Notes: generated from the sequence alone by a model not told the origin. Positions 22,774 to 26,698 are shown, counted from the first letter of the stretch. The stretch: DNA of 64,000 nt from Gammaproteobacteria bacterium (GCA_965216305.1 OZ244144.1:3692429-3756428); one strand, 5' to 3'. Program-made: numbers and translations.

Positions 22774-23943
22774 TTACTGGATTTCGACGCGGAACTGCAC
22801 CGTCGCCAACTCGCCCGGGCTGAGATCGATCCCGCCCACGGTTACGGCATTGGCAGTTGTGCCGTTGAAATCGCCGACATCGGCATCGAGGATGTTCGTC
22901 AATGCGAGCGCCGCGCCAGCGTTGATATTCGGCGCGGTTACGAGGCATCCGCAGGGCACGCTCGGGCACGTACCGTGACCGTTATACCCATCGAAGACGA
23001 ACGCGAGCGTTCCCGCCACGAGCTCGCTCGTGAGCAGATCCGTTAGCGTGATACTCGTTGCCGCCTGTGCAGCACCAGCATCGTTCTCCACGGTGATCGT
23101 GTATTCGAGAATCGCGCCGGGAATCGACTGCGGATTCGTCGTGCCATTTATCGGGTCGGAAAGCACGCTGACAGCTTTCGCCACCGTCACCGGCGACACC
23201 TGCACATGGCACGCGTCGGTATCGGAGAATATGCCGTCGGGTAACAACTGATTGTCCGTGTCGCCCGCGCCATCGCCGAATACGATGTCGACACTCGCGA
23301 TATCGCCGGCGCCTACGGTCGCAACCGTTTGCAATCCGATCAGCCCGTTCGTACCAGCGTTGTGCGTCGTTGCCGACAAGGTCACAGCGGCGATGTCGCC
23401 ATTAATCTGAATGCCGGGAATCGCGACGACGCAGAACACCGTCCTGCTTTCGTCGGGCTCGAGTTCATCGATAAATGTCGCGAGATCAACCAGCGGCTCG
23501 TACGTGCCGTTGCCGTTCGAATCGACGAAAACCAGGATCACAGCAAGCGAGAAACTCACCGTCCCGCCCCAGGGATCGGTTGCGCTTGCCGTTGCCGTCA
23601 ACGCGTAGTCCTGGGTTGTGTTCCCCGTGTTCGTCACCACATAAGACATAACCGCGACGGCCTGGCCCGGCGACACGATCGTATACGCGCCGTCCGCTTC
23701 GGCAACCACCAGGTCAACCCGGTTGTCGACGACGAACGTTGTATCGCTACCGTTACCCAGGCCGGGAACGCTGTTGCCGTTTGGTGAACTTTCCACCGGT
23801 TCCTGGGGCGTACCACCAACCTGAAAATTGATAATGGCCCGATTGTTGATCGCTGTTCCGGACAACACGCCGGCCGCGTGCGAACTCGTAGCAACGAGCC
23901 CGCTCATTATCGCGAGCGCGATAAAGAAGATGCGCTGTTTCAT
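22774..23943 (-). CDS. Secreted DUF11-type protein (putative fibre subunit)
   Basis: Signal peptide ending SHA; GTAINNRA; VTNTGN; VAK...PGAILEYTITVEN; ends VQFRVEIQ; GGAG RBS. Confidence 0.85.
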   Translation of the reverse strand: MKQRIFFIALAIMSGLVATSSHAAGVLSGTAINNRAIINFQVGGTPQEPVESSPNGNSVPGLGNGSDTTFVVDNRVDLVVAEADGAYTIVSPGQAVAVMSYVVTNTGNTTQDYALTATASATDPWGGTVSFSLAVILVFVDSNGNGTYEPLVDLATFIDELEPDESRTVFCVVAIPGIQINGDIAAVTLSATTHNAGTNGLIGLQTVATVGAGDIASVDIVFGDGAGDTDNQLLPDGIFSDTDACHVQVSPVTVAKAVSVLSDPINGTTNPQSIPGAILEYTITVENDAGAAQAATSITLTDLLTSELVAGTLAFVFDGYNGHGTCPSVPCGCLVTAPNINAGAALALTNILDADVGDFNGTTANAVTVGGIDLSPGELATVQFRVEIQ

Positions 23944-23986
23944 ACCCACACTCCAAGCGACGCGGTCGCGCGCGTCCAACTGATTT

Positions 23987-24484
23987 TCATTTAACGACCG
24001 TCTTGAAATGGACACGGGCGGTGTCGCCAGGCGCGACCGGGTAGTTCAACGCAAACCTGATATGCGTGTAATCGCGGTTCGTCGCAATCCGGCTCGTTCC
24101 GTCCTCCTCAACCAGGGTCAAGGATTCCGCGGCATCAAAGCTGTCACCGCCATCGGCGGAAAACCGGATCTCGGCGTTCGGCGCCACTGCCGATCCGGTG
24201 ACGAACTCCGTGTCCGCCGGAATCGGGTCGTCCAGAACGATTCCGGTAACCTCCTCGGCACCCTCGTTGTGGGCGGTGATGATGTAGACGACGGTATCGC
24301 CAGGAACGATGCGGTCGATATCGACCCATTCGCGTGTTGTCGAACCATCGGGCGCAGTTTTGATGACTTCCTGCTTCGCCTCGGCGACGAGGCGAACCGG
24401 GGCCGCCGCGGAGTCGGCCGCCTGGGCGGCCGACAGTGCGATACAAAGCAGCGCTGCACTCGTGAATGCTGTGAAACTATGCAT
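23987..24484 (-). CDS. Secreted single DUF11-like domain protein
   Basis: Signal peptide ending AQA; VPGDTVVY.I..N.G...DPIP..T.FV; ends VHFKTVVK. Confidence 0.85.
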   Translation of the reverse strand: MHSFTAFTSAALLCIALSAAQAADSAAAPVRLVAEAKQEVIKTAPDGSTTREWVDIDRIVPGDTVVYIITAHNEGAEEVTGIVLDDPIPADTEFVTGSAVAPNAEIRFSADGGDSFDAAESLTLVEEDGTSRIATNRDYTHIRFALNYPVAPGDTARVHFKTVVK

Positions 24485-24495
24485 GGGAATTCTCC

Positions 24496-25545
24496 TTACT
24501 GCAGGACCGTACGGAACGTGATCGTGTGCGAAGCGGGCGCGGTCACGTTACCGAGATCAACCGTGATTGCATTGGCAGTGGTGCCGTTAAAGTCGGCGCC
24601 ATCGCCATCGGTATCCGCATCTCCGCGTGGTGCGGCATCCAGCGTGATACTGCCCGGGTCGTAGATCGTATCGGCCGGAACGGGATCGCTGATGACCAGT
24701 CCGGTCGCGACTCCGGTGCCGGTGACGTCGACGACGAGCGTATAGGTGATTACGGCGCCGGGAATAACCGTCGCGTTACCAAACGGATCGAGTACTGTTG
24801 CGCTTTTGACGATCGCAACGGAAATAGAGCTGGTCGTATAGCGGCCCTGGTCCGTACCGTCCGCGTTCGTGTTGCCAACGACTGCGTCGGTGCCGCCGTC
24901 ACCCTGACCGGCGAGCGTCGTGCCGGGGGCCGATCCGGCAGCGCCGGGGTTCGTCGATTCCGCCAGGAGTTCGATGTCGCCGTTGTTGCCATCGGCCTCG
25001 GCTCCCGGGATCGAGACGACAACCCACACTTCTACCGACGCGTTTGCCGGGACATTCGCGTTCAACACCGGATCATTCGCGCCTGCGTTATGCAGAACGT
25101 CGTCCGTGCCCGGTTCGAATATGCCGTCGCCATCGTCGATATAAATGGCGGTGAATGTCGGATCGAAATCGTCACCAGCCAGAGCGTCATCAACCGTGAG
25201 GCCAAACGTTTCGATGCCGTTACCCGTGTTCGTCACGAGAAAGCGGATCGCCTGATCGGTGGCCGGGCTTGCCGTAACCACGGGGCTGGTCTGCACCGTC
25301 ACCACGACGTCGATAACCTCGTCCACCGTATGCGTCAGCAAGTTACTGTCTACATTGACCGCGGCGCCGCCGGACTGGAACGTTGCCGTTGCCCGGTTGT
25401 TGATCGCGGTCCCGGCAGGGGTTCCTATCGCGAGCACGGCGGGACTGGCGCCAACGAGCAGACACCAGAAAACCAGCAAGCGGCTGAGCAGGGAACTGCC
25501 CCGGCCTTCGCGATAACCGGGCAGGGTTAGTTGTATTAAGTTCAT
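24496..25545 (-). CDS. Secreted DUF11-type protein (putative major fibre subunit)
   Basis: AAGGAG RBS; signal peptide; GTPAGTAINNRATATF..SN; VTNTGNG; IVKS..PGAVITYTL..SDPVP; ends ITFRTVLQ. Confidence 0.87.
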   Translation of the reverse strand: MNLIQLTLPGYREGRGSSLLSRLLVFWCLLVGASPAVLAIGTPAGTAINNRATATFQSGGAAVNVDSNLLTHTVDEVIDVVVTVQTSPVVTASPATDQAIRFLVTNTGNGIETFGLTVDDALAGDDFDPTFTAIYIDDGDGIFEPGTDDVLHNAGANDPVLNANVPANASVEVWVVVSIPGAEADGNNGDIELLAESTNPGAAGSAPGTTLAGQGDGGTDAVVGNTNADGTDQGRYTTSSISVAIVKSATVLDPFGNATVIPGAVITYTLVVDVTGTGVATGLVISDPVPADTIYDPGSITLDAAPRGDADTDGDGADFNGTTANAITVDLGNVTAPASHTITFRTVLQ

Positions 25546-25588
25546 TTACATCTCCTTGGCAGAAGCCATAACAGAGGGAAGCAAGTAA

Positions 25589-26698
25589 TCAATCGACAAC
25601 CACGAGATACTCGAGAGCGAAACTCGGTGCGTTGCCATTTACGGCACTACCAAACGTGCCGCTGGGGGATATCCGGATGTGAGTCACAGCCGAATCCGTC
25701 CCGTCAGCCGCCGCTGTCGGGACATAATCAAAACTGGTGCCGCCGTTATTGGAAAAATCGAGGCTGTCGAGCGGGTGCCCCGCGGCAAGAAACGTGTAGC
25801 TGAGGCCGGCGGCGACAACGCCATCGGTAAACAGCACCGGTCCGGAGCCCGGCGCGTCGATATCGGCAACGAGCAATCGCGTGTTCTCGGGCACGGGCTC
25901 GACGATCGTGACGGAATCCGGATCCGCGCCGCTGCCGTAGTTCGTTGCGGTCAGGCGGTAGCGCACTGTTGCCCCGGGAATCGCCTTCGGTGTGCTCGTG
26001 CCGTTCACGGGGTCTGCGTCGGCGCTAACGGTTTTACTGAGGACGATCTCGGGCGCGGCGGCGAGATCGAATTCAATCTCGAGTCGTGCCGCGCCGCTCC
26101 CGCTTTCGTATGCACGCGCATCCCGATTACCGACACCGGAAATCAGAAACGCCAGCGCACCACCGGGCACCCAATCGCCGCGGTCGACGATCTCCTGCAC
26201 GATGGTGATCAACTCCGGCGTGGTCTGAGCGCTGCCTGAAGCACCGCCACTCCAGGCGGGAACGCTGTCCCAGTCCACCGTTGCGGTCGTGCGCGCGCGG
26301 TCGCTCAGATCAAAGAGGCTTGCGGCAAACGGATCGGGACTACTGCTGGCAACGCCGTCAATATTGAACGTGGCGCCGAGGATGTCCGCCGTGTCGGCGG
26401 TAAAGACAATTCGGGCCCCGGTAATATTCGCGCCCCGGGGAATGGCAATGTCGACAAAGCGCACGCCAACGATTCGGGCCACGAGGCCCGCCACCCCGAG
26501 TTGCAGGCGTAAATTGCCGGTATCAACCACACCGGCCGGCAAGGTCTGTTCGGCGTCGTCGTTGCCGGCACCGACGAGTCGGGAAAAACTATCGGCAGCA
26601 GCGACGTTTGCCAGGCCGGCGAGCAACGCCACCACGGCGGTCAAGCGTAACGAACGGGGCTGGACTGGCAAACTCGAAACAGCGGCACGTGGCGGCAT
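25589..26698 (-). CDS. Secreted protein: N-terminal beta-sandwich (DDAEQ-type, adhesin-like) plus C-terminal DUF11-like domain
   Basis: Signal peptide; DDAEQ..VGVRF..IP.GA.I..A.I.FT...IVQEIVDR..W..G; LSKT..DPVNGT..PKAIPGA.VRY; ends LEYLVVVD. Confidence 0.8.
   Translation of the reverse strand: MPPRAAVSSLPVQPRSLRLTAVVALLAGLANVAAADSFSRLVGAGNDDAEQTLPAGVVDTGNLRLQLGVAGLVARIVGVRFVDIAIPRGANITGARIVFTADTADILGATFNIDGVASSSPDPFAASLFDLSDRARTTATVDWDSVPAWSGGASGSAQTTPELITIVQEIVDRGDWVPGGALAFLISGVGNRDARAYESGSGAARLEIEFDLAAAPEIVLSKTVSADADPVNGTSTPKAIPGATVRYRLTATNYGSGADPDSVTIVEPVPENTRLLVADIDAPGSGPVLFTDGVVAAGLSYTFLAAGHPLDSLDFSNNGGTSFDYVPTAAADGTDSAVTHIRISPSGTFGSAVNGNAPSFALEYLVVVD

Follow-up and report, generated by a model that had tools for sequence, protein, structure and literature searches.

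A five-gene operon (g1 to g5, head to tail on the minus strand, 26698-17746) was characterized in a 64,000-nucleotide stretch of DNA from a Gammaproteobacteria bacterium (GCA_965216305.1 OZ244144.1:3692429-3756428), hereafter the window, with all positions counted from its first letter. Probably, albeit with modest confidence, the products of the operon assemble by themselves into a fibre or stalk on the surface of a Gram-negative bacterium, the building element being a split form of the CLIPPER (DUF11) isopeptide domain. As an earlier sequence-only reading of the window had proposed, the domain is divided such that its last two strands, bearing an Asn, lie at the N-terminus of a protein, and the Lys and an acidic residue lie on a C-terminal remnant of seven strands. 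Three of the five proteins (g2, g4, and g5) are donors of such strands, and four (g1 to g4) carry incomplete acceptors.

Architecture and conservation of the split domain

Each of the five proteins starts with a signal-peptide-like segment, and g2, g4, and g5 begin with a two-strand hairpin directly at the signal-peptide cleavage site. The hairpin of g2 (24496-25545, 349 amino acids) spans residues 40-74 (25324-25428) with N50 in the motif INNRA (codon 25396-25398), and is followed by a middle beta-sandwich and an acceptor (residues ~240-349, 24499-24828) with K247 in the first strand (AIVKSA, 24805-24807) and D287 in the middle strand (SDPVP, 24685-24687). The same order of hairpin, middle domain, and acceptor was found in g4, which is listed as an open reading frame (ORF) of 413 amino acids (22774-24015) and likely has its true start at M25 (23943). 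Its hairpin (residues ~48-105, 23701-23874) contains N58 (INNRA, 23842-23844), and its acceptor (residues ~270-413, 22777-23208) contains K280 (VAKAV, 23176-23178) and D326 (LTDLL, 23038-23040). The g2 protein is probably a shaft subunit, and g4 probably a second shaft or an adaptor subunit.

The remaining three genes encode acceptor-only or donor-only proteins. In g1 (25589-26698, 369 amino acids), probably a tip or adhesin module, the signal peptide is followed by a variable N-terminal domain and a C-terminal, acceptor-only split-CLIPPER domain (residues ~215-369, 25592-26056) with K222 (LSKTV, 26033-26035) and E267 (VEPVP, 25898-25900), and no hairpin occurs at either end. The small g3 protein (23987-24484, 165 amino acids) consists of a signal peptide and a single acceptor-only domain of the g1 C-terminal subtype, with K42 (EVIKTA, 24359-24361) and D86 (24227-24229), and is probably a minimal cap or hairpin-binding factor. 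The largest protein, g5 (17746-22770, 1674 amino acids), has a donor-only hairpin at its mature N-terminus (residues 42-72, 22555-22647) with N46 (INIA, 22633-22635), followed by Ig-like and CarboxypepD_reg-like domains and one complete DUF11 domain (residues 365-490, 21301-21678) with K369, D404, and N468, and ends in a predicted giant beta-barrel region (residues ~1082-1649, 17824-19527). It is probably the outer-membrane anchor and possibly also a translocon. The first-strand Lys and middle-strand acidic residue that the sequence-only reading had assigned to the acceptors of g1, g2, and g4, and the Asn that it had placed on the N-terminal hairpins, were all recovered, together with the return-strand Ser-Asn pair and the complete internal domain of g5.

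The conservation of these residues was examined in 80 loci, which were retained from at least 343 stretches confirmed by tblastn in a scan of one genome per species that matched at least 601 stretches. N50, K247, and D287 of g2 were found in 80, 81, and 81 of 81 sequences (the window and the 80 loci), respectively, and N58, K280, and D326 of g4 each in 76/76. Among 44 g5 N-termini, N46 and A48 of the hairpin and the K, D, and N of the internal domain were all invariant (44/44). Likewise, an alignment of the window g2 with 119 homologues (46-53% identity, one at 94%; n = 120) showed the N, K, and D to be invariant, among just 26 invariant columns, and in the g2 return strand S67 was invariant and N68 was present in at least 90% (25 sequences). 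Because the triad positions are (near-)invariant while the mean column identity of the alignments is only 44-56%, the residue pattern is, as judged from sequence, beyond chance.

The points of division also correspond between the proteins. An I/V-x-N-x-A strand is common to the N-terminal hairpins of g2, g4, and g5 and to the last hairpin of the complete DUF11 of g5 (AVNTAFAS...SSNVASATITV), and the return-strand S-N recurs in g2 and g5, with 'VDRk' at this place in the g4 family. At the other end, g1 to g4 and the aligned g1 and g2 relatives stop right after the strand that precedes the Asn hairpin, one g1 relative extending by one further residue. The hairpin turn of the window g4 (residues ~66-90) contains an insertion of ~23 residues (TPQEPVESSPNGNSVPGLGNGSD), which most orthologues lack (gaps in the consensus); therefore, the distal tip of the hairpin tolerates extra loops. 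The middle beta-sandwich of g2 (24826-25330, minus strand) contains the invariant motifs TNTGNG, D-x-(N/D)-G-(N/D)-G-x-(Y/F)-(D/E), and N-D-P, of which the second looks like a calcium-binding loop.

Profile searches placed the domains in the DUF11 superfamily to different degrees. Pfam DUF11 (PF01345, cut-off 24.6 bits) was matched by g3 (31.2 bits) and g5 (39.2 bits, residues 367-487), and TIGR01451 (cut-off 24 bits) by g2, g3, and g5 (31, 44.9, and 28.6 bits), with g4 below the cut-off (19.5 bits) and no match for g1 in the NCBIfam scan. Within the g2 family, 21 of 25 members matched Pfam DUF11 at E <= 0.01; the g2 profile matched g4 at E 8e-36, and hhalign aligned g3 (residues 58-165) with the g1 acceptor at 97% probability. 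Apart from DUF11, only DUF7933, CarboxypepD_reg, SdrD_B, and OMP_b-brl were found among the five proteins in Pfam (E <= 0.01, the threshold of all general Pfam and NCBIfam scans here), the g5 scans showing a stretch like CarboxypepD_reg/SdrD_B and a weak match to an outer-membrane barrel. The CLIPPER triad is contained in one contiguous domain only in the internal DUF11 of g5, as the domains of g1 to g4 stop before the Asn strand; at the level of sequence, g1 to g4 are split derivatives of CLIPPER/DUF11 and not ordinary members.

Structure-based searches returned more general similarities. Foldseek with the g2 monomer model retrieved generic tandem Ig-like rods only (integrin legs, PrgB, AgI/II C-domains, and Saf and CfaB fusions) at a template modelling (TM) score of ~0.3. 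In sequence searches against solved structures, g5 had no match at E <= 0.1, and the single match of the g2 family profile, a histidine kinase (E 0.081), was dismissed as chance.

Probable hairpin insertion between chains

The g1-type acceptors provide evidence that the completing strands come from another chain. In 36 homologues of the g1 acceptor (residues 215-369), the N-terminal domains are mutually unrelated and include H_lectin (H-type lectin), DUF2341, ice-binding-like, PF24517, and other domains, and all 33 that were aligned share the same end point and lack a hairpin. The Lys and the acidic residue were both kept in 29 of these 33 and both lost in four, with four distinct replacement pairs (C/H, L/Q, N/M, and H/L), and never was just one of them retained (Fisher p = 2.4e-5, with the sequences being related and not independent). 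Among the 17 g1-type proteins of the locus set (16 from related loci and the window copy), the three that lack the Lys all have Q at the acid site. Joint retention or loss of the Lys-acid pair in proteins without their own Asn strand suggests that another chain contributes the partner strand. A converse situation is presented by g5, in which the subunit profiles found no second acceptor; as the one DUF11 domain detected in g5 needs no further strands, no acceptor for the N-terminal hairpin is detectable in the same chain.

Unsplit homologues of g2 (873-982 amino acids) indicate the direction of the pairing. These proteins are composed of a signal peptide, hairpin, middle domain, acceptor, ~10 residues, a second hairpin, a second middle domain, and further domains, and end with a C-terminal acceptor that carries Lys and Asp and has no hairpin after it (BLASTP and inspection of the sequences). 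Given this order, an acceptor is completed by the hairpin that follows it, and a hairpin in front of a middle domain therefore belongs, on sequence grounds, to the preceding unit. In the consensus of the 32 unique long subunits, the residues N, K, D, N, K, D are all retained, and it is unlikely that in such long rods the hairpin left free at the N-terminus and the acceptor left free at the C-terminus meet in one chain. The long form occurs in 58 metagenome loci (e.g., L095, L113, and L124), where the shaft subunit has ~885 amino acids and looks like fused g2-like and g4-like units. The gene order in these loci is a g3-like gene, the long subunit, a g5-like barrel gene, and a tip-like protein of ~840-915 amino acids ending in an acceptor. 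The barrel region of the g5-like protein matches the g5 C-terminal profile at E ~1e-100, its N-terminus matches the g2 profile over the hairpin (plus the middle domain in several loci), and the hairpin Asn is kept in 19/19 long-form barrel proteins.

Modelling of a complex was consistent with insertion between chains. Other complex designs of feasible size satisfied all strands either way, within a chain or between chains; since they could not force this choice, two fragments without their own partner in the same chain were paired, one acceptor-only (g1 residues 200-369) and one hairpin-only (mature g2 residues 1-170), in three runs with three controls. The interface score ipSAE was 0.84 in all three runs, versus 0.00 for the best of the controls; the runs shared at least 97% of their contacts, with a predicted local distance difference test score (pLDDT) of at least 78 for the partner. 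The benchmarked ipSAE mark, reached by 116/157 solved complexes and 2/215 mismatched pairs, applies approximately here because our own alignments were used. The interface comprises g1 residues 218-224 (including K222) and 262-268 (including E267) and mature g2 residues 10-22 (including N50). In the model, the first hairpin strand (mature residues 14-19) runs antiparallel to g1 262-266, adjoining E267, and the return strand (mature residues 28-30) contacts L220, adjoining K222. The K/D/N geometry that the sequence-only reading had wanted checked in dimer models is thus reproduced as shared membership of the interface, not as a distance. The arrangement also matches the published rule for CnaA-like domains, with Lys on the first strand and Asn on the penultimate strand of opposing sheets (PMC12617251).

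These results bear on the view that g1 to g4 are unlinked secreted DUF11 adhesins beside an outer-membrane protein and that the N-terminal motif acts as a signal for sorting or recognition instead of as a strand. The highly conserved A-x-G-T-x-A-G-T stretch of g2 and g4, located directly at the cleavage site, would suit such a signal. However, the motif runs on into a hairpin with the I/V-x-N-x-A strand of a complete DUF11, the acceptors all end at the matching point, in the fused homologues an acceptor is immediately followed by the hairpin, and the complex model passes its controls, so that we consider this view very improbable.

Several observations weigh against a fibre joined between chains. 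The g1, g2, and g4 proteins do not singly reach Pfam DUF11 at E <= 0.01. The geometry of the complex model rests on interface membership, without a Lys-Asn distance, and its pass may be partly owed to the likeness of the modelled pair to solved, complete Ig-like domains. The AlphaFold2 (AF2) model of monomeric mature g2 is confident throughout (pLDDT 95.1, predicted TM score (pTM) 0.80), with the hairpin blocks at ~96, and most likely represents a hairpin docked within the same chain; the long linker of g2 (residues ~200-240) makes such docking sterically possible. Moreover, the bond, the fibre, and the surface location are presumed from sequence patterns, and any assignment of a particular hairpin to a particular acceptor, or of homopolymerisation to a subunit, would be tentative. 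Overall, insertion between chains is plausible and well supported by the comparative evidence, short of proof.

The g2 monomer model in particular suits an arrangement in which g2 and g4 are self-complemented circular permutants, each completing its C-terminal domain with its own hairpin and forming an intramolecular bond; only the g5 hairpin would then meet an acceptor-only g1 or g3, and the product would be an adhesin anchored by the barrel instead of a chain of subunits. A conserved stretch of ~40 residues between the middle domain and strand 1 might lead back alongside the domain, and the conservation of K, D, and N would be explained equally well. Nevertheless, even for genuine donor-strand pilins, AF2 can produce monomer models in which the donor strand complements its own subunit, and an alternative monomer fold of FimA is reportedly the subject of one paper. 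Self-complementation is also difficult to reconcile with the long homologues, in which the free hairpin and the free acceptor are ~800 residues of Ig-like domains apart, and it leaves two shaft paralogues with the same split without a role. Furthermore, the donor Asn of g5 is invariant, yet many Sphingopyxis loci have no detected g1-type gene and most g3 proteins lack the Lys; as a result, the only Lys-bearing acceptors left in such loci would be g2 and g4. Self-complementation is accordingly regarded as unlikely, though it is the leading alternative.

Proposed assembly and covalent locking

Under the favoured reading of a split-CLIPPER fibre or stalk, the shaft subunits g2 and g4 would be exported by Sec. 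Their mature N-terminus would bring the last two CLIPPER strands with the bond-forming Asn (I-x-N-x-A); strands 1 to 7, including the Lys of strand 1 and the catalytic Asp, would make up their C-terminus. Each hairpin would slot into the incomplete domain of its distal neighbour, rebuilding a complete CnaA-like domain in which Lys and Asn could react spontaneously to form an isopeptide bond between subunits. Acceptor-only proteins would cap the distal end: g1 with its variable, presumably binding, N-terminal domain, and g3 as a bare cap. At the proximal end, the donor-only hairpin of g5 would act as a plug, thereby anchoring the assembly on the giant outer-membrane barrel of g5 itself. The subunit order may be cap (g1 or g3), g2, g4, and g5, matching the gene order and the fused form, and the product may be a long polymer or a short stalk of fixed order. 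The assembly site and the crossing of the outer membrane by the subunits are likewise presumed.

The chemistry of the proposed lock is known from CLIPPER, an isopeptide domain of fibrillar adhesins whose crystal structure 9IFR has an intramolecular K715-N806 bond with D748 (PMC12617251). The sequence-only reading had taken a bond of the CnaA/CnaB type to be reported for DUF11; the bond itself is indeed reported (9IFR), but according to the same source, DUF11 is CnaA-like and not CnaB-like. The present domains belong to the same superfamily and have the same triad layout (Lys on the first strand, Asp on the middle strand, and Asn on the penultimate strand). In contrast to the described domain, which holds all three residues in one chain, the present system carries the Asn strands apart from the remainder, at the N-terminus either of a different protein or of the same one.

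Donor-hairpin assembly between chains might also proceed without a covalent lock, with Lys, Asp, and Asn serving packing and hydrogen bonding. Some DUF11 domains have no bond (PMC12617251), and oligomers of Clostridium perfringens BsaA without the Asn remain stable in sodium dodecyl sulfate (SDS) until heated (bioRxiv 10.1101/2024.11.04.621531); most g3 proteins, too, lack the Lys and the acid and yet are conserved partners. Against this, the triad is (near-)invariant in g2, g4, and g5 despite an overall identity of 42-50%, the acid and Lys vanish jointly and never singly in the g1-type proteins (4/33), and the same triad is bonded in 9IFR (PMC12617251). A purely non-covalent assembly is therefore considered quite unlikely.

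The case of g3 differs in detail from that made by the sequence-only reading, which had stated that the 165-residue protein has no Lys at the corresponding position. This was not borne out, as alignment to the g1-type acceptor profile places K42 and D86 of the window g3 in the Lys and acid columns, and the segment considered earlier (RLVAEAK) lies five residues too early relative to the aligned Lys column. Among 74 g3 sequences, the Lys column holds K in 10, and the acid column holds N in 69 and D in the other 5; the window copy and that of locus L032 are the only two with Lys as well as Asp. In the three closest operons (L006, L026, and L057), g3 keeps the Asp but has L, V, or M at the Lys column. 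The window g3 may thus have gained or regained a capacity for covalent locking. The related suggestion that a Lys-less protein binds reversibly fits the g3 family, most of which is without the pair, better than the window copy. Since the Lys and the acid are missing in most relatives, these would hold the hairpin non-covalently. The best-matching g3 ORF was found 73 times among the 80 loci, and its position between g2 and g4 is conserved.

The predicted outer-membrane barrel of g5

An AF2 model of g5 residues 861-1674, built from 77 sequences, had a pLDDT of 80.3 and a pTM of 0.63, and 32 long strands were assigned at residues 1082-1649 (DSSP), suggesting that the C-terminus is probably a giant outer-membrane barrel of about 32 strands. 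The barrel, being large enough in the model, may also serve as the export channel. Foldseek with this model retrieved only very large barrels, all at TM 0.14-0.26, including Deinococcus SlpA, LptD, SprA of the type IX secretion system, and TonB-dependent receptors, with FimD at rank 31 and PapC at rank 43. In the ESM Atlas, the g5 C-terminus matched only unnamed outer-membrane protein clusters of ~850 amino acids. The g5 orthologues end in 'YVTFKLKFDQ...'.

Comparison with known fibres and covalent systems

SpyTag/SpyCatcher is an engineered split CnaB2 domain that reconstitutes between chains and locks spontaneously through a Lys-Asp bond with a one-strand tag; by comparison, the operon system is natural and CnaA-like, with a Lys-Asn pair and a two-strand hairpin. 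The operon also differs from the sortase-assembled pili of Gram-positive bacteria, as g1 to g4 have no LPXTG signal or anchor and no sortase match was found among the five proteins.

Similar to chaperone-usher pili (Fim, Pap, and Csu), the operon proteins are predicted, from the complex model and comparison, to use an N-terminal extension that completes the Ig-like fold of a neighbour; further likenesses are a tip composed of a binding domain and an acceptor without a donor, and an outer-membrane barrel encoded in the same operon. Unlike in these pili, no PapD-like chaperone or Usher (PF00577) match was found in the operon (Pfam and NCBIfam, E <= 0.01), the donor is a two-strand hairpin, and the barrel has ~32 long strands, with FimD and PapC matching at a TM of ~0.2. 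In addition, the barrel protein itself bears a donor hairpin, and a covalent lock is predicted.

Among known systems, BsaA and the archaeal threads come closest to the proposed fibre. For BsaA, a member of the TasA family, 'donor-strand exchange and lock' with an N-E-K triad is reported, supported by alanine mutants (bioRxiv 10.1101/2024.11.04.621531). As there, the operon places the Asn on an N-terminal donor segment and the Lys and acid in the recipient, implying sortase-free polymerisation, which for the operon is based on residue pattern and conservation. BsaA differs in its TasA/camelysin-like fold, a Pfam family of which no operon protein matches at E <= 0.01, and in being Gram-positive, linked to SipW and type IV pili, and equipped with a single donor strand and no outer-membrane barrel partner. 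In the archaeal thread Saci_0406, the N-terminal alpha-amine of Asp24 is proposed to be bonded to Asn57 of subunit n+2 (PMC9715654). The thread thereby resembles the proposed fibre in combining donor-strand complementation with a proposed isopeptide bond between subunits and no known sortase. It differs in having no Lys-Asn-Asp triad, archaeal origin, no outer membrane, and no Pfam domain. No description of a split-CLIPPER fibre was found in the literature on DUF11/CLIPPER isopeptide domains and donor-strand pili.

Chaperone-usher pili, type V pili, and archaeal filaments are known cases of donor-strand complementation, and Gram-positive pilins, CLIPPER stalks, BsaA, and SpyTag/SpyCatcher are known cases of spontaneous isopeptide bonding. 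If the proposed reading is true, both principles would be joined in outer-membrane bacteria, and a split CnaA-like domain together with a giant outer-membrane barrel as anchor would represent a new route to a mechanically unbreakable adhesive fibre. The proteins would then offer ready-made, mutually compatible 'tag and catcher' pairs, as well as a simple case in which to study the ATP-independent passage of folded or folding subunits across the outer membrane.

Distribution and genomic context

The family is large, with at least 1128 g2-type proteins (E <= 0.001 among 8000 candidates scored), in addition to the at least 343 confirmed stretches and the 58 metagenome loci of the long-subunit variant (L081-L138). 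The gene order g2-g3-g4-g5 recurs in nearly every one of the 80 loci with enough flank, the hosts being mostly related Sphingomonadales, with Woeseiaceae, other Gammaproteobacteria, Myxococcota, and other metagenome-assembled genomes. A g1-type gene was located either upstream, as in the window, or downstream of g5, and none was detected in many loci (e.g., many of those from Sphingopyxis). The conserved gene set comprises the g1 to g5 types only, and no gene for a sortase, an LPXTG protein, a chaperone, an usher, or a SipW-type signal peptidase belongs to it; likewise, the five operon proteins gave no sortase, chaperone, or usher family match in Pfam and NCBIfam (E <= 0.01), and g1 to g4 end at the last acceptor strand without LPXTG or a hydrophobic tail. 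More tentatively, such operons might constitute a widespread class of 'covalent pilus' in outer-membrane bacteria, assembled by CLIPPER strand exchange with each junction sealed by an isopeptide bond and a tip adhesin tied to a giant barrel that would double as the secretion pore, with neither chaperone nor sortase; this extension is possible but falls short of being the expected outcome.

The distribution of the operon is patchy, as none of 30 related genomes searched, 10 of them from the same genus, contains a g2 orthologue; three of the 30 showed weak partial DUF11 matches (E 5.5e-6 to 8.3e-4). The source genome has no second locus. Near-identical operon DNA was observed in marine and algae-associated metagenome runs, and the GC content of the operon (0.60-0.61) shows no contrast with the rest of the window.

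The genes that recur beside the operon in sphingomonad loci were considered as parts of the system and rejected as housekeeping genes (transketolase, GAPDH, 5-FTHF cyclo-ligase, AI-2E transporter, and 2-oxoacid dehydrogenase E2), and two recurrent raw ORFs near the loci had no Pfam match and looked like wrong-frame calls. In the window, the flanks are unrelated to the operon: a DASS-type transporter is encoded upstream on the opposite strand, and a histidine-kinase fragment and small metabolic genes downstream. The fragment is a 160-residue ORF directly downstream of g5 (17173-17655, minus strand) that covers only the end of a PAS domain and the HisKA H-box of sensor histidine kinases before a stop, contains a seven-residue tandem repeat (REAIDAL twice), and may represent a truncated or frameshifted kinase gene. 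Further downstream (14614-15282, minus strand), a secreted protein of 222 amino acids was found, the C-terminus of which resembles a PEP-CTERM/VPLPA sorting tail (VPIPAAVVFLGSGLLGLLATRRAG), with NCBIfam matches below their cut-offs; this tail hints at an exosortase system in the source organism.

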